Notes under the pieces: model-generated
What the model was told of the DNA's origin: nothing
The model's database searches: none
The model's input: the letters and a program-made list of their open reading frames with translations, nothing else
Translations under genes and position numbers: made by a program
NCBI GenBank assembly: GCA_039000165.1
Contig: JAWBTW010000003.1
Span: forward strand, 21,187-79,355
From: Candidatus Aenigmatarchaeota archaeon
GTDB lineage: Archaea; Aenigmatarchaeota; Aenigmatarchaeia; CG10238-14; SCSR01
Length of the DNA stretch: 58,169 nucleotides
Direction: 5' to 3'
Shown here: one piece after another, positions 9,333 through 48,337 of the stretch
Layout: every line of letters starts with the position of its first letter
Position numbering within the stretch: position 1 is the stretch's first letter

Positions 9333-10247
9333 TTACTCCACTCTTTCTTCCATAAGCTTTTCCAATTCTCTCACACTCTCTATCTCTGGAATTTCTGATT
9401 CCAAAATTATCGGCACGTCTTCGACAGATTTTTTCTCGCACTTTTTTGTAACAAAAACGCATCTTGAAGAAAAAAGAAAGGACATTCTTTTAATGTGAGA
9501 CGCTTCCTTCTCAATTTTTTTCATATTGTGCGAAAGCCCTATTATCATGGAAAACTTCTCTTTTCCCACGATTTCAAAAGGTGCAGAATAGGTTGGGCTG
9601 TTACTCAAACCTATTCTTAAAAATTCTTTTGAAACTTTTTCTTGAAATTCGTTTTTAGGCTTAAGGTAGGCTGGCTCTGAGACCCTAAGCCTAAAAGGAG
9701 TTTTTAAGTTAACATTAAGGACTCTTTCTAAATTTTTGACAGTTTTTAAAGAAGGGTTTGCTCTTTTGTTTTCTATTTCATACAAAGCCTTTTTTGTTAT
9801 TCCTACTAACTTTGAAAGTTCCTCAAGGGTAAAACCTAGCTCTTTTCTTCTATTTCTTAAAACCTCAGTGTTTATAGGAACTGTATGTTTTCCTTTTGCA
9901 GCCTCTATTTCTGGAATTTCTCTATTCTCCAAAAATTTTTCGAAAAAGTAAGGGGTAACAACTGGTAAATCAAACCTTGAATAGACTATTTCTTTCCTTA
10001 GGAATTCTCTGTTTGTTTTAAGTGAAACCACAAGAGGGTAAGCAGAAAGAAAGTAAGAAATTGCTTTAAGACTTAAGGCTTGCTCTTTGGTTAAACCATC
10101 CACGTTTATCAAGGCCTTTATAAGCATCAAGAAATCTTTTTTTGCAGCTATGTCAAAAGCCCCTTCGCTAACTAGTACTTGAAACTTGTGAAAAAGTAAA
10201 GAATTTACTATTTTTTCAACTAAAAAAGATTTATTAAACATTTGCAT
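9333..10247 (-). CDS. Archaeal Cro/C1-type HTH transcriptional regulator (COG1395-like)
   Basis: Central HTH RRKELGFTLEELSKLVGITKKALYEIEN flanked by FDIAAK and APFEIVG segments typical of this family. Confidence 0.85.
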   Translation of the reverse strand: MQMFNKSFLVEKIVNSLLFHKFQVLVSEGAFDIAAKKDFLMLIKALINVDGLTKEQALSLKAISYFLSAYPLVVSLKTNREFLRKEIVYSRFDLPVVTPYFFEKFLENREIPEIEAAKGKHTVPINTEVLRNRRKELGFTLEELSKLVGITKKALYEIENKRANPSLKTVKNLERVLNVNLKTPFRLRVSEPAYLKPKNEFQEKVSKEFLRIGLSNSPTYSAPFEIVGKEKFSMIIGLSHNMKKIEKEASHIKRMSFLFSSRCVFVTKKCEKKSVEDVPIILESEIPEIESVRELEKLMEERVE

Positions 10248-10300
10248 CCAAATAATTATTGATAAGGAAAAGGTTAATAAATGTGCATGTAAGTATACAA

Positions 10301-10394
10301 GGGCCTATAGCTCAGCCTGGTTAGAGCAATCGCCTTATATGGCTCGCTTTCGTGAGAAAGCGATAGGTCGAGGGTTCAAATCCCTCTAGGCCCA
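10301..10394 (+). tRNA. tRNA-Ile(UAU) with 19-nt intron at 37/38 (10340..10358)
   Basis: Acceptor GGGCCTA/TAGGCCC, D-stem GCTC/GAGC, anticodon stem ATCGC/GCGAT, loop CT-TAT-A|A, T-arm GAGGG-TTCAAAT-CCCTC. BHB central helix CUUA/UGAG. Spliced length 75 nt; CCA not encoded. Confidence 0.92.
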
Positions 10395-10451
10395 TAAATT
10401 AACCTAATAAATCTCTTTTCCTTAGTAATTTAATTATGGGTAAAAATAAAA

Positions 10452-10684
10452 ATGAATTGGTCTGGAGTTTTATATGGTGGTTTCGGATGTGAACTTGCTT
10501 TGTGCGGTGCGATTGCTGCTTCTTGTCAAATCAATTATGCAAAATAGCTGGCATTACTCTTGTTGCCTCAGGTTCCATGATTGCGTATGCTGGTTTTGTC
10601 GAAGACACTATGTATGAAAAGTATAAACTACATGAAACACTTTATAAAGGCTTAAAAAATTTATATAAAAAGTTGATAAGATAA
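10452..10684 (+). pseudogene. Small two-TM membrane protein gene apparently split by a 1-nt frameshift
   Basis: ATG 10452 frame (MNWSGVLYGGFGCELALCGAIAASCQINYAK*) and the -1 frame (KIAGITLVASGSMIAYAGFVED...) join at the AAAA run 10541-10544 into ~77 aa. Confidence 0.45.
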
Positions 10685-10719
10685 CAGTGTAACTATTTTT
10701 ACTTCTCTTCTATTTTCTT

Positions 10720-11709
10720 TTAAACTACAATGCTCATAAATGCTTCTGCTATTAGAAAGTAAATTGCTAAAGTTAATATATCGCTTAGCAAGGTTGCTAA
10801 AGGCCCAGTTGCTATTGCCGGATCTTTCCCAATTTTTTTGAAGAAAAGGGGTAAAAGACTTGAAACCAAAACTCCAGCAAACATCCCAACAAATAATGCT
10901 ACTCCAACTATACAACTTAATAAAAAATTTTTCCATCCTATTAAAGCGATTAAAGCAAGAGTTAGAGAACAAACAGAAGAAAGAGCAAGAGTAACTTTAA
11001 GCTCTCTTATCATGTAAGACTTAACAGAAAACTTTGGGTCTAAAGCTATACTCCTTACTATCAAAGTTTCTGATTGAGTTCCTATGGAATCTGTTATGTA
11101 AACCATAACTGGAATGAAAGAAGCCAAAGCGAGGAAAACGCTTAAAACACTTTCAAAAAAAGTTACTATTGAAGCTGCTATAATTCCGCCAAAAATTCCT
11201 ACTAAAAGCCATGGTAACCTTGATTTAATCATGTGCTTAGCAGGAGATTTTATTGTTGTATATTCCTTTCCTACTTTGTGAAACAAACCGCCAAACTTAA
11301 AAATATCTTCTCTTACTTCCTGATTAAAAATTGTTAGAATTGTGTCATAAGGAACTACTCCAAGCAAATGATTTTTCTCGTCTACTACAGGAACTGCTTT
11401 TATTCCCTTTGAAAGAGCAAGATAAACTATCCTTTCCTGATGAGTTCTTGGATGAGCAAAAACCAAATCTTTTTTCATGATATCTTTAGCTTTCAAGTTT
11501 TTATCTTTAGCTTTCATAAGTTCTTTAATGGAAAAAACTCCGCAGAGGACTTTTTCTTTATCCACAACGTATATATAATCCAAAACCTCAAATTTCTCTG
11601 CTTCTCTAGTTAAAATTTTCTTAACCTCTTCCAAAGAAGAATCAACGCTAACTACAGGAACTTCTTTTATCATTAAAGATTCTGCAGTTTTTAAACTTTT
11701 TTGTTCCAT
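10720..11709 (-). CDS. mgtE: MgtE-family Mg2+ transporter (CBS pair + TM domain)
   Basis: Two CBS domains, SRLPWLL, FIPVMVYITDSIGTQ, DPAIATGPLATLLSD. ATG 11709 preferred over TTG 11736. Confidence 0.93.
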   Translation of the reverse strand: MEQKSLKTAESLMIKEVPVVSVDSSLEEVKKILTREAEKFEVLDYIYVVDKEKVLCGVFSIKELMKAKDKNLKAKDIMKKDLVFAHPRTHQERIVYLALSKGIKAVPVVDEKNHLLGVVPYDTILTIFNQEVREDIFKFGGLFHKVGKEYTTIKSPAKHMIKSRLPWLLVGIFGGIIAASIVTFFESVLSVFLALASFIPVMVYITDSIGTQSETLIVRSIALDPKFSVKSYMIRELKVTLALSSVCSLTLALIALIGWKNFLLSCIVGVALFVGMFAGVLVSSLLPLFFKKIGKDPAIATGPLATLLSDILTLAIYFLIAEAFMSIVV

Positions 11710-11789
11710 TAAACTCTTCAAAAATAATTTCTTCAATCTTACTTAAAAACTTGCTTAAATTAATAAAAGCAAAAGAATAAAAAGAAAAT

Positions 11790-12164
11790 ATGGAAATACA
11801 AGAAGCTTTTGGAAAAGTTGTTAACCTTTCTCACAAGAGTTTAGAAAAAGCGCTTGAGGTTTTAGAGTTAAGCAAAGATAAACTTGAGAAGAACATAAAA
11901 AATAAGAAATTCTTGATTTCTCATAAAAATTTTGACTTAATAATCGATTACAAACCAAACTCAAAACAAATTGTTCTTTATTTAACTGCAAAAAAATGGA
12001 GTAAAAAGTTGTTAAAAAGCTTAAAAGAAGGGGACGAATTTAAGTCTATGGTTGTTCTTTTAGGAAATACAAAAATTCTTAAAAGTGACTTTGACATAAG
12101 AATAGGTGCTTTTGGTATTCCTAGCTCTGAACTTGTAAGAGCAGTAATCCAGCATAAATCATAA
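11790..12164 (+). CDS. Hypothetical protein
   Basis: 124-aa ORF filling the gap, host-like codon usage; no motif recognised. Confidence 0.7.
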   Translation: MEIQEAFGKVVNLSHKSLEKALEVLELSKDKLEKNIKNKKFLISHKNFDLIIDYKPNSKQIVLYLTAKKWSKKLLKSLKEGDEFKSMVVLLGNTKILKSDFDIRIGAFGIPSSELVRAVIQHKS

Positions 12165-12671
12165 AGATTTTTCTATTAGCTCTAGAATTAACTTAGGTAA
12201 CGAATTTCTGTTTTTTTCCGTAACTTCTATGATTTCGCCAAAATCATTGAATTTTCTTACGAAATTTCTATGCAAAACTGCAACTAAAGGTTTCTCTGAA
12301 AGAAGAACTTGAGTAAGCTTTTCTCTAAACCTTTGACTGAAAAATTCCATTTTCCCTATTTCATCTATCGCTATAACATCACATTCTCTAAGAGCAAAAT
12401 CCATCGCATTTAAAGCAACTCTCTCAAAGTCTTCAAGATTTATTCCATAACCTCCAAGTTGCGGGCCAATCTTTATATCCTTGCTTGCTAAAATTCCAAT
12501 TTCATTAGAAAAGATATCTTTAACACAAAAACCTACTCTCTTGCCTTTTTCTCTTATCTCTGGTGTAACAAAACCACCTACTCTCTTGCCTTTTTCTTTG
12601 AGTAAATTCACGACCTTTTCCAAAACTGTTGATTTCCCGATGCCAGGCTTACCTGTTAAAAAAATTTTCAT
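12159..12671 (-). CDS. Nucleoside-triphosphatase (THEP1/COG1618 family)
   Basis: IFLTGKPGIGKST, GGFVTPEIRE.G.RVGF, VIAIDEIGKME. Confidence 0.95.
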   Translation of the reverse strand: MKIFLTGKPGIGKSTVLEKVVNLLKEKGKRVGGFVTPEIREKGKRVGFCVKDIFSNEIGILASKDIKIGPQLGGYGINLEDFERVALNAMDFALRECDVIAIDEIGKMEFFSQRFREKLTQVLLSEKPLVAVLHRNFVRKFNDFGEIIEVTEKNRNSLPKLILELIEKSL

Positions 12672-12723
12672 AATTTTCTGTTTGGTTGGTTATTTTAAAT
12701 ATTTCATGATGCAACAATAGATT

Positions 12724-13308
12724 ATGATTAAAAAAATAGTTTTGTCCATCCTTCTTCTAGTTGTTTTATTAATGACATTAAACTTTTCTTTAACAAGTTT
12801 TACTTACCATAGCTCTAACTTTAGTTTAAGTTTACTCTTCGGGTTCATAGTTTCTTCTTTTTTATTGTTTTTGCTTTTCAAGAAGAAAGAAGAAAAAATT
12901 TTGGAAAAAGCTGGTATAAAAAAAGAAGTTGAAAAAAACAGGATAATTGAAGAGTATGGTCTAACTAAGTACTCTTGTGAATTAAGAAAAAACATAGAGT
13001 ATGTAAGCAAAATCTACAGTAACATAAGGGAAAAACTTGTTTATTTAGGGTATATGGAAACTGAAGAGATGAAGCAGTTAGAAGAAAGAAGTAGAATTGT
13101 GGAAGAGATGTTAGATAGCTTGTACGATGCTTTAGAAAATCTCAAAAAAGGTAGAGAGTACAACTCTGTTAGTAGTGTAGAGCATGCTTTTAAATTATCA
13201 GAAGATTTACCTTATTCTGAATTGGTTGAAAATCTTAGAAATCTTGCCACAAAAATGAGAGAAGCTTACACCTTAAAAACTATCAAATTAAAAGAGCTAA
13301 AAAATTAA
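12724..13308 (+). CDS. Two-TM membrane protein with helical cytoplasmic domain (paralog A)
   Basis: Two N-terminal hydrophobic helices; similar to 13348..13971. Confidence 0.8.
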   Translation: MIKKIVLSILLLVVLLMTLNFSLTSFTYHSSNFSLSLLFGFIVSSFLLFLLFKKKEEKILEKAGIKKEVEKNRIIEEYGLTKYSCELRKNIEYVSKIYSNIREKLVYLGYMETEEMKQLEERSRIVEEMLDSLYDALENLKKGREYNSVSSVEHAFKLSEDLPYSELVENLRNLATKMREAYTLKTIKLKELKN

Positions 13309-15362: not shown

Positions 15363-16437
15363 GTGCTTTAGATATAGAGATTATTCTTGTCTTCCCTTTC
15401 ATACCTTTCTTCACTTCTTTTATTTTTATTAGTCCGATTTGATTGAGATGATTGATTAAATCTCTAAAAGCTCTGTCGCTAAGAGGATTTTCCGTTTTTT
15501 TACAATATTCTCTATACAACTCTCCTGAAGTTAAACTTTTTTTCTCTTTCAAGATTTCCAAGATAATTTTTTCATTCTCGCTTATATTTTCTTCCAAAAT
15601 TTTTGGCTTAGCTGGTTTAATTTGTGGCAAAACTTTTTTCACATGAAGAACTTTAAGCTTATCTGAATTTTCACTTTCTGCCAATCTACCAGCCCTAAGT
15701 AAGCATTCCAAACCAACTCTCACGTCACTTCCCTTTTGAACAGCAAAGTTTGCTACTAGAATAGCTACTCCTTCTTCTACAGAGTGGAAAGCATTTTTTA
15801 TTCTTTCCTCAATGATATCTTTCATCTCTTGTACATTATAAGGCTTAAATTCTATTTCCTCTACTCTTAAACTGCTTTTTATTCTTGGATCAAGATTAAC
15901 AAAAACATCTTTGAAATTAGAAATAAAAACAAGACATACTGGGTTTTTTAAGTATTGGTTAATTCTCAACAAATCATAAAGGATTTCCGGACTTTTGAAT
16001 ATTAGTTGATCTACCTCATCCAAACAAACAACCAAACCCCTTTTTGTTTTACCTAAAAATTCTATCATTTTTTCCAGAACTTCATCCTTGCTTATCCCTC
16101 TTCTTGGAGCAAATACGCCTAACTCGTTTGCAATTTTTGTAAGGATAGAAAGAGGAGTATTATAATCCCAACAATTTATGTAAATTGTCTTTATATTTTC
16201 ACTAAAATCTTCAAACTCGCGGAAGACAAATTTAATAACATGCGTCTTTCCTATTCCTGGTGGACCAAAAATAAAAGTGTTTTGTCCTGCTGAACCTCTA
16301 GCTACTGGCATTAAATTCCTTGCTATTTGTTTTATTTTATCTTCTCTGTGTGGTAAAAACTCGGGCAAATAATCAGGAGATAAAACTTCCTCGTTTTTAA
16401 AAATTCTTGATTCGTAAATTTCTGAAAAAGTTTTCAT
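15355..16437 (-). CDS. cdc6: Orc1/Cdc6 replication initiator
   Basis: LSPDYLPEFLPHRE, Walker A GPPGIGKT, Walker B LDEVDQL, C-terminal wHTH. Confidence 0.95.
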   Translation of the reverse strand: MKTFSEIYESRIFKNEEVLSPDYLPEFLPHREDKIKQIARNLMPVARGSAGQNTFIFGPPGIGKTHVIKFVFREFEDFSENIKTIYINCWDYNTPLSILTKIANELGVFAPRRGISKDEVLEKMIEFLGKTKRGLVVCLDEVDQLIFKSPEILYDLLRINQYLKNPVCLVFISNFKDVFVNLDPRIKSSLRVEEIEFKPYNVQEMKDIIEERIKNAFHSVEEGVAILVANFAVQKGSDVRVGLECLLRAGRLAESENSDKLKVLHVKKVLPQIKPAKPKILEENISENEKIILEILKEKKSLTSGELYREYCKKTENPLSDRAFRDLINHLNQIGLIKIKEVKKGMKGKTRIISISKALS

Positions 16438-18035
16438 ATCACTTCCTTCAATTTTTTAATCGAATCTTCTTTTGTTTCGACAAGATAAGGTCCGAGTCTT
16501 GGTCCTTTTTCAACTTTCAAAAGAATTTTATACAAAAGTTTAAAAAAGTCTGCTGGTTTGATTCCATGAGCTCTTGAAATTTCAAAAATTTTTGTTTGCA
16601 TTTTTTCTCCATCTTCTTCTTTCTCTAAACTATCAACAAGCTCTCTTATTGCTTCTTTTTCTTCTTCCGAAATTTCCACTTTTGCTTCTAATTTTTCTTC
16701 TTCAACCCAATTTATAGCAAACTCAAGTCTCTTTTTCAAATCTTCTATTAATTCTGTGTCAAGTTCACTCACAAGTTTCATTTCTTTTAATTTTTGAATT
16801 GCAAACTCCAATCGATTCTTTTCTGGCAACATTCTTGCAATTTCAACAAACCTTGAATAAGGAATTTGTAAAGATGGTTTGTTTGGTGGTTTAAGAAAGT
16901 AAACGTACTCAAAAAGTCTTTTTGCATTGAGTAACTCTCTTTCGTTTTCAACTTTTTCTAAGCCAAAGTATATTCTTTCAAGTTTTATAAGCTCGTCCAT
17001 ATACTTTGGGATATCGCTAATATCAAGCTCTCTTGTTCCTTCAAACCTTTTAAACATTAGTAGAATTAAACTTTGGACACTTCCGTACTTAAACCAAACT
17101 TGAGGGGTAAAGACATTACCATAAGATTTTGAAATTTTTTTCCCTCCTTTTTCTAGAAACATCTCGTACATTATGTGAATCGGGGGTTCAAAACCTAGAA
17201 TTTCTTTACAAATTATATCGTTAACTCTAACAGAATCATGAATGTCTTTTCCATAAGCTTCAAAAACTATTCCCAGAGCTTTCCATCTTGCTGCAAATTC
17301 ACCTTTCCAGCTAAGCTTACCATTTCCTTTAAAGTAGCTTGCCTCACCTTCATAACCGCAACCTTTAACTATTATTTCTTTTCCTGTGTTTAGGTTTTTT
17401 CCGATAAACTCTTGGTCACAAACATACAATACCTTATGCTCTTCAGGAAGAAGCTTATAAGCTCTAGTTGTATAAATTTTTCCACATCTTTCACAAACAG
17501 GAAAATAAGGAAGCATTTCCACAAATTTTTCTTGCCCAAGCAAATCTTTTACTATTCTTCCAATTTTTTCCGCGTTTAGAAGAATTTGCTCTATTTCCTT
17601 ATCTAAAACTCCTTTTCTGTAGTTTTCTGTTCCAGATTGAAAAGTGTAATCTATTCCAGCCTTTTCTATAGCTTCTATAAGTAAAGAGCTCATGTGCTCA
17701 CCATAACTTGAATGACAATTGAAAGGATCGGGAATGTTAGTAACGGGAACTCCTATGTATTTTTCAAGCCAATTTGGCATAGTTAGAGGAACTTTCCTTA
17801 AACCGTCTCTATCGTCAGAGTAAGCAATAAACTCTGATTTAAACCCCAAATCCCTTAAACCTAGGGTCACTCCATACTGCCTAACTACATCACCAAAACT
17901 ACCTAGATGAGGAAAACCAGAAGCTCCTAAACCAGATTCTGTTCTCAAAACCTTTATTCCTCTTTTTAATTTCTCTTCTCTTTCAACTATTTGTTTTGCT
18001 ACTCTATCAATCCAAAACTCGTATTTTTTTTCCAT
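16434..18035 (-). CDS. lysS: Lysyl-tRNA synthetase, class I
   Basis: SGLGASGFPHLGS (HIGH), SDDRDGLRKVP, KISKS (KMSKS), GPRLG. Confidence 0.97.
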   Translation of the reverse strand: MEKKYEFWIDRVAKQIVEREEKLKRGIKVLRTESGLGASGFPHLGSFGDVVRQYGVTLGLRDLGFKSEFIAYSDDRDGLRKVPLTMPNWLEKYIGVPVTNIPDPFNCHSSYGEHMSSLLIEAIEKAGIDYTFQSGTENYRKGVLDKEIEQILLNAEKIGRIVKDLLGQEKFVEMLPYFPVCERCGKIYTTRAYKLLPEEHKVLYVCDQEFIGKNLNTGKEIIVKGCGYEGEASYFKGNGKLSWKGEFAARWKALGIVFEAYGKDIHDSVRVNDIICKEILGFEPPIHIMYEMFLEKGGKKISKSYGNVFTPQVWFKYGSVQSLILLMFKRFEGTRELDISDIPKYMDELIKLERIYFGLEKVENERELLNAKRLFEYVYFLKPPNKPSLQIPYSRFVEIARMLPEKNRLEFAIQKLKEMKLVSELDTELIEDLKKRLEFAINWVEEEKLEAKVEISEEEKEAIRELVDSLEKEEDGEKMQTKIFEISRAHGIKPADFFKLLYKILLKVEKGPRLGPYLVETKEDSIKKLKEVI

Positions 18036-28671: not shown

Positions 28672-29274
28672 ATGAGAGAATTTATACTCAGAGCTTCAAA
28701 AGCAGTTACTACGCCAGATTTTAACTTAAATGATTTAGCAGGTTCGGCAGGAAGAATGGACTTGGTTTGTAGATGCATTTCTAGTGCTCTCTGGATTTCT
28801 AACGATTTGAGAAGAGATGCTAGAATATTTGTGGTTTTGGAAGGACCACCAGTTCCACCAAAGATGTTAGTATTTGAAGGAAGCTCTTTAAAAGGAGTTA
28901 ACCCTGACGAAAGGAACATAGCCTCGCATATAAAAAAAGCTTTGAGGCTTGGTCTTAACTTAAAACTTAACGAGGAAATAGAAGTTTCTCCTGGAATCAA
29001 GGTTGCAAAAAAAAGTTTTGAAACTCTGATAAAAGAAAAAATAAAAGAAACTCAAGTTTTATACTTACATCCAAAAGGAAAGGATATAAAGGAAGTGGAA
29101 GCTAAAGAAAAAGTTGCTTTCGTCTTAGGCGATCATGTGGGAATTGCCAGAAAAACTGAAAAGTTGATGGAAAGACTCGGTATAGAGAAAGTTTCGCTAG
29201 GAAAAACGATTTATTTGGCAAGTCATGCTATAGTTATAGTAAATTACGAGTTAGATAGAAGATGGTTAAAATGA
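28672..29274 (+). CDS. trmY: tRNA (pseudouridine54-N1)-methyltransferase
   Basis: LNDLAGSAGRMDLVCRC, NPDERNIA, FVLGDH.G SPOUT motifs. Confidence 0.95.
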   Translation: MREFILRASKAVTTPDFNLNDLAGSAGRMDLVCRCISSALWISNDLRRDARIFVVLEGPPVPPKMLVFEGSSLKGVNPDERNIASHIKKALRLGLNLKLNEEIEVSPGIKVAKKSFETLIKEKIKETQVLYLHPKGKDIKEVEAKEKVAFVLGDHVGIARKTEKLMERLGIEKVSLGKTIYLASHAIVIVNYELDRRWLK

Positions 29275-30554
29275 AAATAGAAGAAATCGCCTTAAAAGTT
29301 TTGAAAAATTATACATTATGCGACAATTGTTTAGGAAGGATTTTTGGTCAAGTTCTAACTGGCCTTACCAACAAAGAAAGAGGAAAAATAATAAGGTACT
29401 TTATAGCTTTTTTGCTAGATTCTGGAGAAAAAATAGAAGTAAAACCTTCGAATTTTTACAAAATTGAGTTCAGAAACATAAGCTTAAAGGTAGAAAAACC
29501 TGAAAGATGCTCTCTTTGTAGAAACATATTTGAAAAAAAGGAAAAAATAGCAGAAAAGATAGCAGAAAAGTTGAAAGGAATAGAGTTTGAGACTTTTGTT
29601 ATAGGATCAAAAATTCCTGACGAAATTCTAAAGGTTGAAGAAAAAATTTGGGAAGAAGTTGGAATAGAATTTGTTGAATCAATAAAGTCAGAAATAAATA
29701 GAGAAATAGGGAAAGAAGTTGCAAGAATTACAAAGAAAAAATTTGAACCAAAAAATCCTGACATTACTGTCCTGATAGATTTAGAAAAAGGAAGAATAAA
29801 GATTGAAATAAGAAGCTTGTTTGTTTTTGGTGGTTATAAAAAACTTGTTAGGAACATACCTCAATCAAAATGGGTTTGTAGTAGATGTAAGGGAAAAGGA
29901 TGCAAATATTGTAAAGGAAAAGGGAAACTATATCCAACTTCCGTTCAAGAAATAATAGAAAAACCTTTGTTGAAAGCCACGAGAGGAAAAAGAAGTTTCA
30001 TGCACGCAACAGGAAGAGAAGACATAGATGCAAGATGTTTAGATTACAGACCATTTATAATAGAAATCGAAAACCCTTTAAGAAGAAACATCAACTTGAA
30101 GAAAATCGAAAAAGAAATAAACAAGTCAAAAAAGGTTAAGGTAAAAGGCTTGAGAATGACTGAAAAGGAGTTTATAAAAATTTTAAAGTCTGCTAGATTG
30201 GACAAAACTTATTTAGCTGAAGTTGAGTTTGAAAAAAATGTAGAGAAAAGTAAGTTAAAAGAGCTAAAAATTTTGGAAAAAGAGCCGATACTTCAAAAAA
30301 CTCCTCTGAGAGTTTTACATAGAAGAGCTGACAAGTTCAGGAAAAGAAAAGTGAAAAGCATTTCCTATAAGCTTTTGGGAAAGAAAAAGCTTCTTTTAAA
30401 AATAAAGGCTGAAGCAGGACTTTACATAAAAGAACTGATTACAGGAGATGAAGGAAGAACTAAGCCTAACGTACAAGAAATTTTGGGGAACAAAGTTAAA
30501 AAGATAAAGTTAGATGTTATAAAAATACATGATGAAAAACTAAAATTTTGGTGA
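29271..30554 (+). CDS. pus10: tRNA pseudouridine(54/55) synthase Pus10
   Basis: [13 protein letters not shown] domain, catalytic [22 protein letters not shown] 29271 overlaps the trmY stop (ATGA). Confidence 0.96.
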
Positions 30555-30558
30555 TGCT

Positions 30559-30843
30559 ATGGTTAAAAAATCAAGAGGATTGCGAACAAAAACAAGGGAA
30601 AAATTAAGACAAAAACCAGGTTATAGGCCTGCGATAACAAAGTTTTTGCAAGAATTTAACAAAGGGCAAAGAGTAGTAATAGTACAAGAACCTTCTTCCC
30701 ATAAAGGAATGCCGCATCCAAGATTTAAAGGAAGAGTGGGAAAGGTTATAGGGAAAAGGGGAAAAAGTTATATTGTTGAAATAACAGATGGAAATAAGGT
30801 TAAAAAGATAATTTCAAGACCTGAACACTTAAAGGCGGTTTAA
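30559..30843 (+). CDS. rpl21e: 50S ribosomal protein L21e
   Basis: [28 protein letters not shown]. Confidence 0.97.
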
Positions 30844-31170
30844 ATGAAGATAATAGCAGAAGAAACAATAACCAATGCGGAAGCAAAAGAAATACTTGAA
30901 AATAGGGCAAAAGAAGTTGAGCTAAAATACGAGCAAAAAAATGCCCTAGAAATTTTGAGAAAGTTTGTTAAGCTTGATTCTGAAAAGGCGAAAAAGCTTG
31001 CTGAAGAGCTAAAAAAAATTGAAAAATTAAGGGAAAGACAAATAGTTGAAATAATCAACTTTTTACCGGAAGATAAAGATGAGTTAAGAGTTGTGCTTCA
31101 CAAGGAATACAACAGTTTTACACCCGAAGAAATAGACATGATTTTAGAAATAGTAAAAAAGTATATCTAG
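30844..31170 (+). CDS. rpo4: RNA polymerase subunit Rpo4 (F)
   Basis: ITNAEAKEIL...YEQKNALE...IINFLPEDKDELR; conserved position after rpl21e. Confidence 0.93.
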   Translation: MKIIAEETITNAEAKEILENRAKEVELKYEQKNALEILRKFVKLDSEKAKKLAEELKKIEKLRERQIVEIINFLPEDKDELRVVLHKEYNSFTPEEIDMILEIVKKYI

Positions 31171-31188
31171 CCCTTTCTGGCGATTGAA

Positions 31189-31737
31189 ATGATGAAAGAC
31201 GAATATGCAATAGTTTTAGATTTTCTTCCTCACGGAAAACCTGGGGATAGAAAAGCAGAACCTATAGCTCAAGCTATAGGAGAGAAATTCTTTAACCTTT
31301 TAGAGTTAGCTATAAGAGAGGGGGTGGAAGTTAAACCAAAGGAAAGGGTTTATATAGGAGAAGATAAAAGAGATAAGGTAAAGTACATAAGAGGGAGAAT
31401 AAGCTATAACGAGCTTACAAATTTTGCAAAAAATGAACTAGAAGAAGTTTTGCTTGAGCAGATAACGAAAGATGAAAAAAGATTCGTGAATATTTTTAAC
31501 AAGGCCGGACCTATTTCAACAAGAATGCACGCCTTAGAACTATTACCTGGAATAGGAAAAAAACACCTTTGGGATATAATAAGTGAAAGAAAGAAAAAAC
31601 CTTTTGAAAGTTTTAAGGAGTTACAGGAAAGGATAGAAATGCTTCCAGATCCCAAAAAAATGATATTAAAGAGAATTTTAAGCGAACTTGAAGGAAAAGA
31701 TAGACACAAACTTTTTGTCGGTTTTTCCTTAGTTTAA
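31189..31737 (+). CDS. DUF655 RNA-binding protein
   Basis: EYAIVLDFLPHG, TRMHALELLPGIGKK (HhH); conserved position after rpo4. Confidence 0.93.
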   Translation: MMKDEYAIVLDFLPHGKPGDRKAEPIAQAIGEKFFNLLELAIREGVEVKPKERVYIGEDKRDKVKYIRGRISYNELTNFAKNELEEVLLEQITKDEKRFVNIFNKAGPISTRMHALELLPGIGKKHLWDIISERKKKPFESFKELQERIEMLPDPKKMILKRILSELEGKDRHKLFVGFSLV

Positions 31738-31952
31738 CTCTCTTCTTCTATTTCTTTTATCGCAACTGCAACAGAAATCCAGAGTAGGCCACCTACTAAA
31801 AAAAGGACAAAAGCAATTAGCAAAGCTAAAGAGAAGCTCATATCACTTACACCCAAACCCTTTTCCAAATGACCAGCAATCATAGAAGCAAAGAGTATAC
31901 AAATAGAACCCAAAACCCAAAAACTTACTATCTTCCAGTTTCTCTTTACCAT
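31734..31952 (-). CDS. Small two-TM membrane protein
   Basis: Two hydrophobic helices and an acidic tail; downstream of ef1b. Confidence 0.7.
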   Translation of the reverse strand: MVKRNWKIVSFWVLGSICILFASMIAGHLEKGLGVSDMSFSLALLIAFVLFLVGGLLWISVAVAIKEIEEES

Positions 31953-31982
31953 CTTCTCTTAAATTAGATAGTTTTTCAAAAT

Positions 31983-32240
31983 TTATAAACTTCTTGTTAT
32001 CCCTGTAACTTCTACTTCTCCTACTTCCTCTATTTCCTTAAGTTTATTTTCTAGCTTCTCTACTTCTCCTCCTGCGTCTGGAACTATTTTAACAACATGA
32101 ATAGCAACTAAACCAAAAGCAATAGGCTCGCGGGAAATTTTTTCTGGTTTTATCGCATTCTCTATTTTTTCTTCTAACTTATCTAAGTCAACTTCTATTG
32201 TTTTTGGAAGAACCTTTAATCCAACTATTACTTCTCCCAT
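31983..32240 (-). CDS. ef1b: Elongation factor 1-beta
   Basis: MGEVIVGLKVLP...EPIAFGLVA...VGEVEV. True start is ATG 32240; the track extension overlaps the DUF1610 gene. Confidence 0.95.
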   Translation of the reverse strand: MGEVIVGLKVLPKTIEVDLDKLEEKIENAIKPEKISREPIAFGLVAIHVVKIVPDAGGEVEKLENKLKEIEEVGEVEVTGITRSL

Positions 32241-32242
32241 TT

Positions 32243-32404
32243 TTACGGCCCCGTAAACCCACATTTTGGGCAAGTATACTTATTGCTTAAAGCTTTACAA
32301 GTTGAGCATCTAACTATTAAAGCTTCCCCGCAACTTGGACACTCAAACTTAACGAAATTTTCTTTTGCTAAAACATTAACCTTACAAGTTGAGCATTTAA
32401 ACAT
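32243..32404 (-). CDS. DUF1610 zinc-ribbon protein (53 aa, not in ORF track)
   Basis: Hand translation MFKCSTCKVNVLAKENFVKFECPSCGEALIVRCSTCKALSNKYTCPKCGFTGP; canonical neighbour of ef1b. Confidence 0.92.
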   Translation of the reverse strand: MFKCSTCKVNVLAKENFVKFECPSCGEALIVRCSTCKALSNKYTCPKCGFTGP

Positions 32405-32443
32405 TATTTAAGCTTAGTATTAATAATTTTTATAGGTTACGCT

Positions 32444-32528
32444 GCCCCTGTAGTCTAGCCTGGACAGGATAGAAGCTTGCGGTAAGAGTGAAAAGCTTCT
32501 GGCCCGGGTTCGAATCCCGGCAGGGGCA
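32444..32528 (+). tRNA. tRNA-Arg(GCG) with 11-nt intron at 37/38 (32483..32493)
   Basis: GCCCCTG/CAGGGGC acceptor, GAAGC/GCTTC anticodon stem, TT-GCG-G|A loop; central helix UUGC/GUGA; spliced length 74 nt. Confidence 0.92.
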
Positions 32529-32570
32529 TTAAAAATTTAAAATACCAATTCCTAAAAATTGTTAGAGAAA

Positions 32571-32753
32571 ATGCCAAATTTAATTCTTATAATCATCTTA
32601 CTAATCCTAATTTTTCTTCTCTTCCTAAACTTAGACTGTATAATGGAAGGAATAAACAGAGAAAACAAAGCTTTTTGCTTTTACCAAGATTTTGGGTTGA
32701 ACAAAATAGGCGCAAAAACTATTCCTTTAAGCAAATGTGTTTGTTTCCCTTAA
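32571..32753 (+). CDS. Small membrane-anchored Cys-containing protein
   Basis: ATG 32571, strongly hydrophobic N-terminus, four Cys; downstream of tRNA-Arg. Confidence 0.5.
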   Translation: MPNLILIIILLILIFLLFLNLDCIMEGINRENKAFCFYQDFGLNKIGAKTIPLSKCVCFP

Positions 32754-33658
32754 TTTTTTAAAACAACCTTCATAAAATCATAAGCAACTTTCGTGTTTTC
32801 AAAAATCTTTTTTGCATTTTCTTCTAAATCTTTTACGTCAGTATACCTTCTACTTATGTGAGTTAAGATTAATTGTTTAACGTTTGCCTTTTTTGCTATT
32901 CTTGCTGCTTGTTTAACGTCAGCATGAGCTTTTCCACTTTCTTCCTCAAGAAAAGTTCCGTCATGAATTAGCAAATCAGCGTTTTCAGAAATTTTTACAA
33001 TATTATCGCAAGGTTTTGTATCACCTGTATAAACAACCTTTAAACCTTTCTTTAAATTTGCTACTTCTTCGATTCTAATCTCTTTTCCCTTATATTCTGC
33101 TTTCCCATATTTTTTAAGTTTCTTGAGCCAATAACCTCTTTTTAAACCAAGCTTTTTCATTTTTTCCAAATCAATACTCCATCTATCCTTTTCCTTAAAA
33201 GCATAAGCTACAGAAGGAATAGAATGAAAAGCTGGAATTGAAAAAATTTGATAATCTTCTGTTTCATCTATAAGAGTAACTTTTTCACCATGAAAAGGAA
33301 CGTTTATAGCAACAACAGGAAACCTACAACCAAAATAGCCTAAGCTTAAAATGTTTGCCACAAACTTTTCAGCTTCTGGGGCAAAAATTTTCAATTCTTT
33401 TTTTCTTTTTTCCAAGCTCATAGTTTGGAGCAAAGGAATTAAACCAGCAAAATGATCAGCATGCCAATGAGTTATGAAAATCTTATCTATTTTCATAAAG
33501 CTAATTCCAGCAAGCATTAATTGCTTTTGGGTTCCTTCACCGCAATCAAAAAGTAAAGTTTCTTTTTTCTTGCTATAGTACTCTAAAGCTATTGCTGGGT
33601 GGTTTCTTTCTTTGCTCGGTATACCAGAAACCGTGCCCAAAAAAGTTATTTCTATCAC
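32750..33658 (-). CDS. rnz: Ribonuclease Z
   Basis: FLGTVSGIPS..R, LFDCGEGTQ, THWHADH, YTGDT, LIHDGT, LTHISRRY. Confidence 0.97.
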   Translation of the reverse strand: MIEITFLGTVSGIPSKERNHPAIALEYYSKKKETLLFDCGEGTQKQLMLAGISFMKIDKIFITHWHADHFAGLIPLLQTMSLEKRKKELKIFAPEAEKFVANILSLGYFGCRFPVVAINVPFHGEKVTLIDETEDYQIFSIPAFHSIPSVAYAFKEKDRWSIDLEKMKKLGLKRGYWLKKLKKYGKAEYKGKEIRIEEVANLKKGLKVVYTGDTKPCDNIVKISENADLLIHDGTFLEEESGKAHADVKQAARIAKKANVKQLILTHISRRYTDVKDLEENAKKIFENTKVAYDFMKVVLKN

Positions 33659-33680
33659 AATCCTAATTATAGGAAAATCT

Positions 33681-35111
33681 TTATATTAGGCTTTCCTTTT
33701 CAAAGTATTTTCTCAAGAATATGCCAAAATTTTCATCTTTTTTAACAAGCTCCATTATCTTTTCATTCTCGTAAATTAGCTCAAAACCTTTTACTATTTG
33801 TTCAGCTATGTGATTTGGTATTCCTTTTGCTTTAAGCACTTCCAGATTCTTGCTTAGACTGTCAAAAATTTTCTCTCTTGCGGTGATGAATTTTCTTTTA
33901 ACTTCAACACACCAGAAATTGTCTTCTATAAAAGGTCCAGTAATTGCTTGAGTTTTATACTTTTCTAAAAACCTTTCAGAATCGTCCAAATCAAAAATTT
34001 TCGGTCCAATTCTTTTTTGAATTAAAGGCAGCTTGGAAACTTCCATCTCAAGTAGAACTACAGCCAAATCTTTTTCATTTGTATAAACATCCTTCCTTAA
34101 AACTTTAAACTCATACTTAACTTCTTCCAAGATACTTTGAATCCTTTCAGCAAATTTTCTTAGCTGAGGCCAAAGAATGTCAGGGACAACTTTTGGCGGT
34201 GAAAATTTAATAAGTATTATTTCCGTTCTTCTTTTCATTTGATAAACTATTAGTTCATTTTCAGTTATTGGCTCGATTTTTCTCTTAAAGAAAAGCTCTT
34301 CTCTCGGGTTTTCCAAGAATTCTTTAGCCAGTTTTTTAAACTTGAAGAAATTAGTAGAAGAGAGGGCAGCACAGGTATTTCTGTTTTTGTCTGTCGGGTC
34401 TATAAGAATTAAAGCTTGGTTTTTAAACATCCTTATAAGCTTAGGATAATCACTTTTCGAATAATAATTTTTTATTTGAATTATTTCACCTGGTTTCCAG
34501 TTTGCAGCCTTTTTCATGAGTTTAAGGAAACTCTTGTACTTTATTATAAGCAACTCACAAACATAACCAGAAAAACCTTCAGTTTTTGCATCAGCTCCAT
34601 ATATTTCGTTAGCCTCACAAAACTTCTTCAAAAGTCTTACTTCCTCTGCCATTTTTTTAGTTAAATTCTTTTCTATGAACCTAACATGGAAAGGAGTTCT
34701 GTCTACTGCGGACTTTATTTTTTCTGGACTTTCTACTTCATAACAAGGCACTATATCAACGCTTATTTCTTTAATTTTCCCTGAAACATAAGGATGTTGC
34801 GCATACTCTATTGTGTATTCTCCCTTCATCCTTTCTATAACTTTTTTTCCTATTTCTAGACCAAGCTTTTCGAGCTCTTTTTCTTTCAGTTCAGGAGGGA
34901 AAAGAATGAAAACGTCAAACTCTCTTTTTTCTGGAAGCCAAGTATCTCTTGTTATACTTCCTACAAGCATAGCTTTTGCCTTGTATTTTTTTGCTTCCTC
35001 GTTAGCAATTTTTAGAACACGCTGAGCTAAAGATTTCAGTCTTCTCTCTTCCTCTTTCTTTGGCTTTATTTTTTCAAGTACTTCTTTCAATACTTTTGCG
35101 TGCTTATCCAT
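33681..35111 (-). CDS. cca: CCA-adding enzyme, archaeal class I
   Basis: GSITRDTWL...EFD, YAQHPYV, VDIVPC, SAVDRTPFH, GFSGYVCELL, IDPTD..RN. Confidence 0.96.
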   Translation of the reverse strand: MDKHAKVLKEVLEKIKPKKEEERRLKSLAQRVLKIANEEAKKYKAKAMLVGSITRDTWLPEKREFDVFILFPPELKEKELEKLGLEIGKKVIERMKGEYTIEYAQHPYVSGKIKEISVDIVPCYEVESPEKIKSAVDRTPFHVRFIEKNLTKKMAEEVRLLKKFCEANEIYGADAKTEGFSGYVCELLIIKYKSFLKLMKKAANWKPGEIIQIKNYYSKSDYPKLIRMFKNQALILIDPTDKNRNTCAALSSTNFFKFKKLAKEFLENPREELFFKRKIEPITENELIVYQMKRRTEIILIKFSPPKVVPDILWPQLRKFAERIQSILEEVKYEFKVLRKDVYTNEKDLAVVLLEMEVSKLPLIQKRIGPKIFDLDDSERFLEKYKTQAITGPFIEDNFWCVEVKRKFITAREKIFDSLSKNLEVLKAKGIPNHIAEQIVKGFELIYENEKIMELVKKDENFGIFLRKYFEKESLI

Positions 35112-35115
35112 TCTT

Positions 35116-36087
35116 TCACTTTATTTCAAACTCTCTTTCGATGCATCTTACCTTTCCTGTTACTTCACATCCTCCGTACTGAAGGCCTCCTTTGTAAGAA
35201 GTATAATAACAAAACATTGCTTTGTACTTTCCTGGTTCTGCCATTTTTTCCTCGTTGCAATTCTTTGGGAATGTCCTATTTCCAGAAGTACAGTTTATTG
35301 TTTTTGGTTCATAAACTTTTTGGTTCCATACATAACTAAATACTCCAAGAGGTTTAATTTCTGAGCAAAGTTTAGCCTTTGCAGGGCATAATGGACAAGC
35401 TAAACAATCACAGGGGCATGGACAGTAAACTTTTATTTCTTGTTCTACCCATTCACCGTTTTTATACAAGTATAGAAACTTCTCGTCCCAGTCGTAAAAA
35501 TCTACGTAAATCGAAGAATTAAGGTTGTTTATTATCTTAAACTCAATATCTTCTCCCTGTTTATAAGATTCTTTAAGAAGGAAGTTCACCCCTGGCTCAA
35601 GCCCACAAACCTCTTCTATTTCTATTTCTTTGTCTCCAACTCGAACGTATGCGCATGAAAATTCACCTTTCTCTCCAACTAAACCAATTAAGTAATAAAC
35701 CTTGCAATGTGGTAAGTAAGCTTCACAACCTTCAGGCTCTTTTTTCCAAAGTTTTGAAGCTCTAAAAACTTCTACACTAGTGTTTGGCTTAATGTAATCC
35801 TCTATGCCGTCGCAACTTTTTTTAAGAGTATTGAACAAATTTTCATCTACAAAAAGAGATACTTTACTTATTTCTTCAAAGCTAGTTCCGCATTTTGCTA
35901 TTTTTTGATTTATAAGGTTGAGTGCTTCTTCATTTGTTATTTCAACAGGAAAAGGTTTTGGTGAATAGTACAAATAGTATAAAACTATTATTACTACAGT
36001 TAAAACCATTACTGGTATGACTAGGCTCTTCCAGCTTATTTCTTTCTTAACTCTTTTAGCTTCCTTTTCTCTTGCTTTTTTCGCCAT
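35116..36087 (-). CDS. Membrane-anchored extracellular protein with Cys cluster and Ig-like C-terminal domain
   Basis: Basic N-terminus + TM helix; CPCPCDCLACPLCP; YKQGEDIEFKIINN...SYVWNQ...PGKYKA Ig-like pattern. Confidence 0.78.
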   Translation of the reverse strand: MAKKAREKEAKRVKKEISWKSLVIPVMVLTVVIIVLYYLYYSPKPFPVEITNEEALNLINQKIAKCGTSFEEISKVSLFVDENLFNTLKKSCDGIEDYIKPNTSVEVFRASKLWKKEPEGCEAYLPHCKVYYLIGLVGEKGEFSCAYVRVGDKEIEIEEVCGLEPGVNFLLKESYKQGEDIEFKIINNLNSSIYVDFYDWDEKFLYLYKNGEWVEQEIKVYCPCPCDCLACPLCPAKAKLCSEIKPLGVFSYVWNQKVYEPKTINCTSGNRTFPKNCNEEKMAEPGKYKAMFCYYTSYKGGLQYGGCEVTGKVRCIEREFEIK

Positions 36088-36120
36088 AATTATTTTTTTC
36101 TTTTTTATAACTTAAATTTG

Positions 36121-36741
36121 CTAGTAAAAGAAAAGAAAGAAAATCAGAAAGATTAGTAAGGAAACCAAAAGGATTAAAGGAGAGGTTTGAGGATAAGGCA
36201 AAGAGAAAAAACCAGTAGTTGTACTCGAAACAAAGAAAGCCAAAAATCCTAGGAAAAATAAAGGAATAAGTTTTATAAACTCTTTAAAGCCAAACTTTTT
36301 CTCAATTTTAATTTCTTTTTTAGTAAGTAAAGATTCTAAGCAGCTCTGAAGCATTTTATAAACTTCTCTTCCATAGCCCACTTTTAACAACAAATCCTCC
36401 GCTGGGATTAAGCCTTTTTCAATATAAACCTTGAACCTGGAGTAAATTCCGTTTTTGTAAAGATTATACAAGAGTTTTCTTGCTTCTTCACTTAAGCTTA
36501 TTTCTATTTTTCTCCTGTAAGAATAATCCTTTTTTCCATAGCCCATAAGTTCAAAAGAAGTTTGGGGTAAGTATTCAAGAGTTAAATTGTTTGTCTCTTG
36601 TTTTAAAACAACTCTTTTTCTTTTTTCTAAAGGTAACTTTTCCCAATAAATTTCAAAAATCCTTCCTAAGCTCTTAGCAATTTCAGAAGTAAGGCTATTA
36701 TTTTGATACAAACTCTTGCTCAGATTTGAAAAAAAGCTCAT
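36121..36741 (-). CDS. Hypothetical protein with two C-terminal TM helices
   Basis: 206 aa; C-terminal helix-TTGFFS-helix hairpin. Confidence 0.72.
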   Translation of the reverse strand: MSFFSNLSKSLYQNNSLTSEIAKSLGRIFEIYWEKLPLEKRKRVVLKQETNNLTLEYLPQTSFELMGYGKKDYSYRRKIEISLSEEARKLLYNLYKNGIYSRFKVYIEKGLIPAEDLLLKVGYGREVYKMLQSCLESLLTKKEIKIEKKFGFKEFIKLIPLFFLGFLAFFVSSTTTGFFSLPYPQTSPLILLVSLLIFLIFFLFFY

Positions 36742-36773
36742 TATTTAATTTTTGTTTTTCCCTTACCTTAACT

Positions 36774-37010
36774 CTAACTCCTAGCTAAACATTTTTCCAT
36801 TTCTGCTATAACTTCAGAGTAAGGTTCCTTATCGTAACTTGTATAATTTTTCTTTAAGTAATTGTACACAACCAAAGCCTCCCATTTTGGAAGAGCTCGA
36901 AACTCTTTCAAAGCTTCTTCTATGCTAATCCCTCGGAAAATGCTGTAAGGACAAGGAAAATTACAACTCTTAAGCAATAATTCAAAAGTTTCGATTAAAA
37001 GTTGGTTCAT
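36774..37010 (-). CDS. Small hypothetical protein
   Basis: 78-aa ORF just downstream of elp3 on the same strand. Confidence 0.6.
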   Translation of the reverse strand: MNQLLIETFELLLKSCNFPCPYSIFRGISIEEALKEFRALPKWEALVVYNYLKKNYTSYDKEPYSEVIAEMEKCLARS

Positions 37011-37031
37011 ACTCTATTAATAGCAAAAAAA

Positions 37032-40356: not shown

Positions 40357-40427
40357 TTTTAATTAGAATAGCAAAAAAATTAATTCCTTTGGTTTTTAGT
40401 TTATGCAATTAGTTAAACAAAGTAGTA

Positions 40428-40523
40428 TAGCCCCGAGCGGATTCGAACCGCTGTCACGAGGTTTCTCCCAGCGACCAGAGCCTTCTACCCTTTTCGTATG
40501 CTTGGCCGCTGCACCACGGGGCT
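40428..40523 (-). tRNA. tRNA-Gln(CUG) with two introns (29/30 and 37/38)
   Basis: AGCCCCG/CGGGGCT acceptor. Removing 40483..40493 (11 nt) and 40463..40474 (12 nt) gives CGAGG-CT-CTG-GA-CCTCG and a 73-nt tRNA. Central helices AUAC/GUAG (3 of 4 pairs) and CUCU/GGAG. Confidence 0.9.
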
Positions 40524-40614
40524 ATATGTAATAATTAAGGGGACAAAATTAAAAATGTGACATTTGGAAAAATATTTTAACTTATTCTTTTTAAAAATAT
40601 TTTAAGTGAAAAGG

Positions 40615-40894
40615 ATGAAAGGTGAATTAGAAACAAATCGTAATTTCTTCTTATTCTGACTTGTTTAAATCTTCTTCTCTAGTTAGCTACTTACACTTTA
40701 GAAAATTCTTGAGCAAGAGAATGTTAGAATTTATCCTTAAAAACTGTAAAAACATAAAAATTATTTCAATGTCAAAGTATGCTTATAAGAGATGCGACAA
40801 AAAAATTATAGAATTAATAGAAAAGCGAGGTATAAAATTAATTGTTAGACAAAACTTAGGAAGACCAAGCATAATAGAGAGGCGAATGAAATGA
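40615..40894 (+). CDS. DUF1699-like small protein with interrupted 5' end (frameshift or in-frame TAG)
   Basis: KQIVISS...YLHFRKF...FILKNCKNIKII.MSKYAY...GIKL resembles DUF1699 as I recall it. The frame is open from 40631 with no ATG before the conserved first strand. Confidence 0.5.
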
Positions 40895-47864: not shown

Positions 47865-47978
47865 CCCCGCTTAGCTCAATGGTAGAGCGACCGGCTGTAG
47901 GCGAGCGCTTTGGCGCTTGCTAGTAGCTATCGCTCGGTCAATACCGGTAGGTTGGGAGTTCAAGTCTCCCAGCGGGGA
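47865..47978 (+). tRNA. tRNA-Tyr(GUA) with 42-nt intron at 37/38 (47901..47942)
   Basis: C1:G72 acceptor CCCCGCT/AGCGGGG, ACCGG/CCGGT stem, CT-GTA-G|A loop; spliced length 72 nt. The junction motif is non-canonical. Confidence 0.88.
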
Positions 47979-48048: not shown

Positions 48049-48164
48049 GTTGGCGGCCAAAGCGGGGAGGAAACATCTGTTCCCGTTCCGAACACAGTAA
48101 TTAAGCTCCCCAGCGATCTGGGTTGTACTTTCCGAAAGGAAGGGAACTCCAGGACGCCGCCAAC
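48049..48164 (+). rRNA. rrf: 5S rRNA (stand-alone, not with 16S/23S)
   Basis: Terminal helix GTTGGCGGC/GCCGCCAAC, CCCGTTCCGAACACAG..TTAAGC core, TTCC-GAAA-GGAA loop; 116 nt. Confidence 0.95.
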
Positions 48165-48239
48165 AATTTAAATTGGTGTCTGTATTAAAGAAAAAACAGA
48201 GAATGATGACTTTTCCTTAGAATTCCATGAAATAAGGAT

Positions 48240-48325
48240 GCCTCGGTGGTGTAGGGGCCTAATGGATAGGCTAAGCATACGAGCCTGTCACGCTCGTGAC
48301 ACGGGTTCAAATCCCGTCCGAGGCG
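48240..48325 (+). tRNA. tRNA-Asp(GUC) with 13-nt D-arm intron at 21/22 (48262..48274)
   Basis: GCCTCGG/CCGAGGC acceptor, G73, CGAGC-CT-GTC-AC-GCTCG arm. The 22-nt D-loop resolves via BHB (GGCC/GGCU helix, UA|A and AA|G bulges). Spliced length 73 nt. Confidence 0.9.
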
Positions 48326-48337
48326 TTTGGTGAAATT

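Follow-up and report, generated by a model that had tools for sequence, protein, structure and literature searches.

An intron-containing gene for tRNA-Ile(UAU), the probable AUA decoder, in a Candidatus Aenigmatarchaeota archaeon

The codons AUA and AUG differ solely in the wobble base, and each organism needs an isoleucine reading of AUA that spares methionine. In most archaea this is achieved by agmatidine on C34 of the isoleucine tRNA. Here we describe a gene for an isoleucine tRNA with the anticodon UAU, tRNA-Ile(UAU), in a stretch of 58,169 nucleotides (nt) on contig JAWBTW010000003.1 (assembly GCA_039000165.1); the whole stretch is called the window below. We consider it highly probable that the gene, which contains an intron, is functional and gives a Candidatus Aenigmatarchaeota (DPANN) archaeon its AUA-decoding tRNA-Ile(UAU), most likely in place of tRNA-Ile2(CAU) together with its modifying enzyme TiaS. 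The gene belongs to a kind that has been described since 2003 and 2011.

The closest described cases are ARMAN-2, -4 and -5, in which tRNA-Ile(UAU) is present while tRNA-Ile(CAU) and TiaS are absent (Fujishima et al. 2011, PMC3239211). The ARMAN-2 precursor contains a 25-nt intron at position 37/38 and was cleaved in vitro by its endonuclease, and the ARMAN tRNA-Ile(UAU) was interpreted as replacing tRNA-Ile2(CAU) and TiaS (PMC3239211). With these members of the Micrarchaeota and Parvarchaeota the gene of the window has in common the DPANN affiliation, the UAU anticodon and the canonical 37/38 intron. The differences are an intron of 19 nt instead of 25, a relaxed splice motif instead of the strict hBHBh' form of the bulge-helix-bulge (BHB) motif, the lineage (Aenigmatarchaeota), and a TiaS search that covered 58 kb. 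Nanoarchaeum equitans and Korarchaeum cryptofilum also possess tRNA-Ile(UAU), as two of 167 genomes (PMC6000648), and their tRNA was termed 'Ile3(UAU)' in the tRNAscan-SE 2.0 paper (PMC8450103). These are likewise archaeal UAU isoleucine tRNAs, in genomes without tRNA-Ile2(CAU), and the Korarchaeum UAU gene has an intron like that of the window while its GAU paralogue is intronless; however, they belong to other lineages and were treated as rare exceptions, whereas the scan reported here found the trait to be common in DPANN.

More distant systems show other ways of reading the same codon. The archaeal tRNA-Ile2(CAU) and TiaS serve it with the same isoleucine-type body, while position 34 is a C modified at C2 there and a U in the window. 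The eukaryotic cytoplasmic tRNA-Ile(UAU) resembles the gene of the window in its UAU anticodon and in a 37/38 intron that pairs with the anticodon (PMC6582322); its anticodon is pseudouridine-A-pseudouridine, and the yeast intron is needed for pseudouridine 34 and blocks the formation of ncm5U34 by Elongator (Elp3). Archaeal splicing recognises the BHB motif whereas the eukaryotic machinery measures from the mature domain, and the tRNA of the window is known from its gene. Mycoplasma mobile (PMC3575796) and a suppressor of the Bacillus subtilis tilS deletion (PMC3919564) are reported as prokaryotes without a C34-modifying enzyme in which a UAU tRNA reads AUA; these bacterial tRNAs are described as intronless and unmodified at U34, with fidelity coming from a co-adapted isoleucyl-tRNA synthetase (IleRS) and ribosome.

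The gene of the window and its parts are as follows.

10301–10394, forward strand: pre-tRNA-Ile(UAU) gene, 94 nt, CCA not encoded (Rfam RF00005, ARAGORN and the copy in a second assembly)
10301–10339, forward strand: 5' exon, tRNA positions 1–37 (covariance-model alignment and hand parse)
10336–10338, forward strand: anticodon TAT (U34 A35 U36), between C32-U33 and A37
10340–10358, forward strand: intron, 19 nt, at the canonical 37/38 position, TGGCTCGCTTTCGTGAGAA
10359–10394, forward strand: 3' exon, tRNA positions 38–73, starting with A38 (sequence, covariance model and spliced fold)
10334–10359, forward strand: relaxed BHB motif (hand pairing)
10274–10281, forward strand: candidate archaeal TATA box TTAATAAA, about 24 nt before the start of the mature tRNA (inferred from the sequence)

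The Rfam RF00005 covariance model matched 10301–10394 on the forward strand with 65.0 bits against a gathering score of 29 (E = 6.9e-12, model positions 1–71), and the tRNA boundaries given by ARAGORN were identical. The acceptor stem is GGGCCTA/TAGGCCC with the discriminator A73 at 10394, the D arm is GCTC-AGCCTGGTTA-GAGC, the anticodon stem is ATCGC/GCGAT, the variable loop is AGGTC (5 nt) and the T arm is GAGGG-TTCAAAT-CCCTC. In the anticodon loop the covariance model aligned C-U-U-A-U-A, then an insertion of 20 nt (the 19-nt intron and A38), then the 3' strand of the stem. When 10340–10358 was taken out, the spliced product of 75 nt folded into a mismatch-free cloverleaf with stems of 7, 4, 5 and 5 bp and a minimum free energy (MFE) of −31.3 kcal/mol. 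By reading of the sequence the conserved tRNA bases U8, A14, G18-G19, U33, T54-T55-C56 and A58 are all in place. The body also carries A73, C4-G69, U12-A23, C29-G41, A37 and A38, which is the identity set of tRNA-Ile in E. coli and may differ in archaea. The first-pass annotation, made from the letters of the window, had named a TAT anticodon in an Ile-like body with A73, and both parts were borne out by the covariance model and by these E. coli-type identity bases. The pre-tRNA was more stable than its shuffled versions (z = −4.65), none of 200 shuffles being as good.

The gene is conserved in close relatives. Contig JAWCFS010000002.1 of the independent assembly GCA_039091995.1 (L121) matched the window over 7650 bp with four mismatches (99.95% identity) and contained an identical tRNA gene, and the thermosome gene adjacent to the tRNA of the window was also found on it. 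A metagenome collection was then scanned with the 5' half of the tRNA, leaving position 34 free. Among the matches, contig Ga0190363_1013264 (L123) had tRNA exons identical to those of the window at 75 of 75 positions, T34 included, while its intron was of 21 nt against 19 and of different sequence. Its flanks were 74% identical on the side of the thermosome and a helix-turn-helix (HTH) protein and 78% identical on the side of the lysyl-tRNA synthetase (LysRS), with a different gene order. Unchanged exons beside drifting flanks and a drifting intron indicate, at the level of sequence comparison, purifying selection on the exons including T34, and the tRNA-Ile(UAU) gene is real, conserved and almost certainly functional. 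The order thermosome, HTH protein and tRNA-Ile(UAU) recurs in other metagenome-assembled genomes, including L084, with L089 likewise syntenic, and a thermosome gene adjoins the tRNA in about 12 loci.

Two other environmental tRNAs sit on contigs unrelated to the window. On Ga0172365_10108201 (L124), a contig of 1.8 kb, positions 1477–1553 of the reverse strand hold an intronless CAU tRNA, the D arm and anticodon stem of which equal those of the window's UAU tRNA and which, compared by eye, is about 83% identical overall; judged by this resemblance, it may be the counterpart of a tRNA-Ile2(CAU). The 43-kb metagenome contig SDBT01001342.1 (L125) carries 11 tRNA genes (Asn, Ile, Lys, Ala, Val and duplicates) within 3.3 kb at 10009–13237; it was matched solely because its tRNA-Ile(GAU) has the same D arm and anticodon stem as the tRNA of the window.

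The distribution was examined in one genome per species (GTDB representatives), using as pattern the D arm TAGCTCAG...AGAGC together with the loop CTTATA. The scan yielded at least 120 matches, and all counts of distribution given here are among the 120 matches listed, which divide by record title as follows.

Woesearchaeota: 32
Unclassified archaea: 24
Micrarchaeota: 17
Bacterial labels: 12
Pacearchaeota: 10
Nanoarchaeota: 9
Iainarchaeota / Diapherotrites: 7
Other archaeal labels: 6
Aenigmatarchaeota: 2
Parvarchaeum: 1

At least 108 archaeal-labelled genomes, nearly all of them DPANN, therefore possess tRNA-Ile(UAU), and the lineages include Woese-, Pace-, Nano-, Micr-, Iain-, Aenigmat- and Parvarchaeota. 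The premise of the first-pass annotation that a UAU-type tRNA-Ile is confined to few lineages did not stand; it is also contradicted by the published ARMAN cases, with their UAU tRNA, 37/38 intron and lack of tRNA-Ile2(CAU) and TiaS (PMC3239211). A review of 2022 held UAU to be generally unused in prokaryotes. The phenomenon is thus known, while its breadth in DPANN appears to be under-reported.

An interruption immediately after A37 is present in 80 of the 108 archaeal-labelled genes and absent from 28, in contrast to an intron in 4 of 34 adjoining tRNA-Glu(UUC) genes. In the two Aenigmatarchaeota matches (L017, L104) and in the similar L084 and L089 there is, besides the 37/38 intron, a second one in the T loop, after GGTTCAAA or GGTTCGAA; the gene of the window has a single intron, the canonical one. 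The bacterial-labelled matches are interrupted after A37 in 2 of 12 cases, and one of these two also has a thermosome. As a side observation, six matches labelled 'bacterium', 'Omnitrophota' or 'Methanosarcinales' (L029, L033, L030, L041, L050 and L059) contain a DPANN-like tRNA-Ile(UAU) interrupted after A37, and L029 additionally carries the thermosome; these bins may be mislabelled or contaminated.

The demand for AUA decoding is high. In 53 open reading frames (ORFs), covering 89% of the window, the isoleucine codons were ATA 789, ATT 570 and ATC 155 times. ATA accounts for 52% of them and for 46 per 1000 codons, against 16 per 1000 for the nearly threefold rarer ATG, so the frequent use of ATA noticed in the first-pass annotation proved correct and ATA is in fact the commonest isoleucine codon. 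Since ATA is this frequent and an isoleucine tRNA with G34 cannot read AUA, a dedicated and abundant AUA decoder is required.

The usual archaeal decoder was searched for in the window. Pfam scans of 40 ORFs of the window (including all listed ORFs of at least 180 aa) found none of the TiaS domains PF08489, PF22641 and PF23783, and tblastn with the Archaeoglobus fulgidus TiaS found nothing in the 58-kb window (best E = 1.3) or in 120 loci. The query matched PDB chain 4RVZ_Z, which is named TiaS, with 100% identity across 420 residues. A protein search with TiaS was uninformative on DPANN, all named sequences among the best 120 of 6639 homologues being Archaeoglobus relatives. No CAU anticodon occurred among the tRNA genes of the window with a readable anticodon, the anticodon arm of the gene at 40427–40524 being unparsed. 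Beyond the ARMAN paper, no survey of TiaS or agmatidine across DPANN was found in the literature searched, and TiaS is likewise absent from the supplements to the Undinarchaeota/DPANN paper. Loss of tiaS from the genome is likely by analogy, on a search of the 58-kb window.

The alternative that survives best is that we are dealing with an extra gene, redundant or in decay, AUA still being read by a tRNA-Ile2(CAU) and a TiaS encoded elsewhere in the genome. It is compatible with the search for tiaS and Ile2(CAU) having covered the 58-kb window, and the environmental CAU tRNA on L124, which matches the tRNA of the window in D arm and anticodon stem, indicates that such genes occur in nature. 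A decaying copy is nevertheless hard to reconcile with four perfect stems, with exons unchanged in a relative whose flanks are about 25% diverged, and with a gene type kept in more than 100 DPANN genomes among the matches listed. Redundancy is opposed by the rank of ATA as the major isoleucine codon and by the ARMAN genomes with tRNA-Ile(UAU), which are without both TiaS and Ile2(CAU) (PMC3239211). On balance we regard this alternative as improbable.

The second alternative comes from ARAGORN, which labelled the gene 'tRNA-Stop (tta)' and, with the intron option on, 'tRNA-Ser (aga)', the placement of the intron deciding whether it would be a suppressor tRNA (UUA) or a tRNA-Ser (AGA). With the anticodon UUA, position 33 is C instead of U and the anticodon stem is broken, while for the AGA reading the cut falls inside the central helix of the splice motif and A34 results. 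Serine tRNAs have a long variable arm, whereas the class I body in the window has a variable loop of 5 nt. A UUA suppressor would also meet TAA as the main stop codon, used by 31 of 53 ORFs including those for thermosome, SRP54, threonyl-tRNA synthetase (ThrRS), DNA ligase and ribosomal protein S7, and the covariance model aligned UAU as the anticodon. Both labels were rejected as artefacts of intron placement, ARAGORN sliding the intron and ignoring the BHB geometry, and there is very little chance that either is right. The same kind of error gave 21 DPANN homologues the label Ser(tga). Such mislabels mean that automated annotation of DPANN can suggest false changes of the genetic code or a missing AUA decoder. 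The last alternative is that C or G was misread as T at 10336, through a sequencing error, as raised in the first-pass annotation, or an assembly error; it is practically excluded by the identical gene in the independent assembly L121, by the identical exons with T34 on the diverged metagenome contig L123, and by the UAU anticodon in at least 108 archaeal genomes.

The intron would be removed at a relaxed BHB motif. Its central helix of 4 bp pairs CTTA (10334–10337, bases 32–35) with TGAG (10353–10356), including one G-U pair, and the 3' bulge AAA (10357–10359), which holds the 3' splice site, abuts the anticodon stem. As paired by hand, this central helix and 3' bulge have the canonical archaeal layout for a 37/38 intron, and the geometry of the central helix was the same in 56 of 70 intron-containing homologues. 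U34 and A35 lie inside the central helix and U36 and A37 inside the 5' loop, so that the intron pairs with the anticodon in the precursor. Moving both cuts by one base gives an identical mature sequence, and the anticodon is therefore independent of the ambiguity of the cut sites. The splice sites were placed by the covariance model, the BHB geometry and the homologues; plain MFE folding was not used for this purpose because it did not reproduce the anticodon stem and splice motif, here or in 60 of 70 homologues.

Several points weigh against a functional, spliced AUA decoder that has replaced the CAU system. The 5' splice site lies within a 7-nt asymmetric loop (10338–10344) and not in a clean 3-nt bulge; this loop is closed solely by a 2-bp CG/CG hairpin (10345–10346 with 10351–10352, loop CTTT at 10347–10350), in place of the 3-nt 5' bulge closed by an inner helix of the strict hBHBh' form, which leaves the motif in the relaxed class. 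The precursor has a computed MFE of −43.7 kcal/mol against −29.7 for the splice-competent conformer. The MFE structure destroys the anticodon stem by pairing the intron segment UCGCUUUC with GAAAGCGA (within 10344–10363), a stretch made up of the final G of the central helix, the 3' bulge and four bases from the anticodon stem's 3' strand. Replacement of Ile2(CAU) and TiaS is argued by analogy and from a search of 58 kb. In addition, a haloarchaeal tRNA-Ile engineered to U34 binds AUG besides AUA (PMC3895270).

The first two of these points also have a counterpart in other DPANN. Their broad-specificity splicing endonucleases cleave relaxed motifs (PMC3239211). MFE folding retained the anticodon stem in 10 of 70 homologue precursors, and comparable competing folds were predicted for most; in homologues from Woese-, Pace- and Nanoarchaeota, the strand CTAAGAGA, the proper partner of the anticodon loop, can be captured by an intronic copy, TCTCTTAG. 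We treat the competing fold, itself a product of modelling, as an unexplained property of these introns and not as evidence against splicing.

A functional tRNA-Ile(UAU) gene would be expressed in the following way. It would be transcribed, possibly from the TTAATAAA box at 10274–10281; upstream of the other tRNA genes of the window no consistent pattern of constant promoter spacing, a sign of leaderless transcription, was found. At the relaxed BHB motif, with bases 32–35 paired to the 3' end of the intron, the archaeal splicing endonuclease would cleave the 94-nt precursor; the halves would then be ligated and CCA added. A CCA-adding enzyme is needed because the gene encodes no CCA. A37 would presumably become t6A, which is expected because U36-A37 is the universal determinant. 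IleRS would then charge the tRNA, which would read AUA, the most used isoleucine codon here, and would most likely substitute in this lineage for tRNA-Ile2(CAU) and the agmatidine synthetase TiaS, as in ARMAN, Nanoarchaeum and Korarchaeum. Two genes of the window bear on these steps.

33681–35111, reverse strand: CCA-adding enzyme (Pfam tRNA_NucTransf2, CAA_C, NTP_transf_2)
37032–38591, reverse strand: Elp3, full length, radical-SAM and acetyltransferase (Pfam ELP3_N, Radical_SAM, Radical_SAM_C, GNAT)

Elp3 is a general U34 enzyme that modifies C5 of U34. The first-pass annotation had reported its gene in the window, and the gene is complete, with the four Pfam domains listed. A link between the two is a fair question and not a finding: Elp3 is a candidate modifier of tRNA-Ile(UAU), and nothing ties it specifically to this tRNA. 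The sole pseudouridine synthase among the 40 ORFs scanned was Pus10 (29262–30554).

The literature searched held no description of how U34 is modified in any natural archaeal tRNA-Ile(UAU), and the comparable systems differ. As summarised in PMC3895270, the tRNAs of Mycoplasma mobile and the Bacillus subtilis suppressor are unmodified at U34, with no notable misreading of AUG. The engineered haloarchaeal U34 tRNA-Ile carried cnm5U, bound AUA > AUG > AUU and slowed growth, and such versions were poor IleRS substrates (PMC3895270). Since they are poor substrates and also bind AUG, a natural UAU tRNA needs some adaptation. In yeast, pseudouridine 34 is made on the intron-containing precursor only; after deletion of the intron, some of the tRNA carries the Elongator-type ncm5U34 instead (PMC6582322).

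By analogy with yeast, it could be imagined that DPANN as a group gave up the agmatidine system and kept the intron for a reason, the precursor helix that contains U34 directing an early modification (e.g. pseudouridine 34) or stopping Elp3 from making an xm5U34 able to read AUG as well. We regard this as a speculative and rather unlikely proposal. The excess of introns in tRNA-Ile(UAU) over tRNA-Glu(UUC) would fit a yeast-like, intron-dependent step, and fits phylogenetic inertia equally well.

The wider setting agrees with the stated origin of the window. Its G+C content is 31–37%, and it encodes a thermosome, a class I LysRS, an archaeal ThrRS with editing domain, a split RpoB, Cdc6/Orc1, Pus10, Elp3 and an ATP-dependent ligase. 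The label Candidatus Aenigmatarchaeota archaeon is attached to proteins that share at least 90% identity with the RpoB, S7 and LysRS of the window. Genes of tRNA maturation are concentrated at 28672–38591, namely a TrmY-like methyltransferase (PF04013), Pus10, RNase Z, the CCA-adding enzyme and Elp3, the methyltransferase gene lying directly upstream of Pus10 and overlapping it. Class I LysRS and ThrRS are close by; their coordinates and those of RNase Z are given below.

16434–18035: class I LysRS
32750–33658: RNase Z
40891–42747: ThrRS

Other RNA genes of the window were also observed. A tRNA-Tyr(GUA) at 47865–47978 (forward strand) pairs C1 with G72 and is interrupted after G37 by an intron of about 43 nt; Rfam scored it with 58.7 bits and ARAGORN made no call. 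The 5S rRNA at 48049–48165 (forward strand, 80 bits) lies between this gene and a tRNA-Asp(GUC) at 48239–48326 (forward strand), just upstream of the split rpoB genes. The tRNA-Asp contains about 17 extra bases in the D loop, which look like a non-canonical intron, and was labelled Ala(ggc) by ARAGORN. For the tRNA at 32444–32528 (forward strand) ARAGORN gave Pro(cgg), while the canonical 37/38 reading is GCG (Arg) with an 11-nt intron, the helix TTGC:GTGA and an AAA bulge, and its isotype in automated annotation is uncertain. A tRNA-like gene at 40427–40524 (reverse strand), the one with the unparsed anticodon arm, does not reach the gathering score of Rfam. Its acceptor stem pairs A1 with U72 and its D and T arms are good; more than one intron may be present, and the ARAGORN label 'Ser(aga)' is not credible.

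According to our scan, an encoded UAU is the rule and not the exception in many DPANN lineages, and the window adds an example from the Aenigmatarchaeota. How AUA/AUG fidelity is kept could be studied to advantage in a DPANN archaeon that has been cultivated. If the intron does act on U34, this would be a eukaryote-like answer to the AUA/AUG problem in archaea, with a U34 chemistry that would be new for a natural archaeal tRNA-Ile(UAU).

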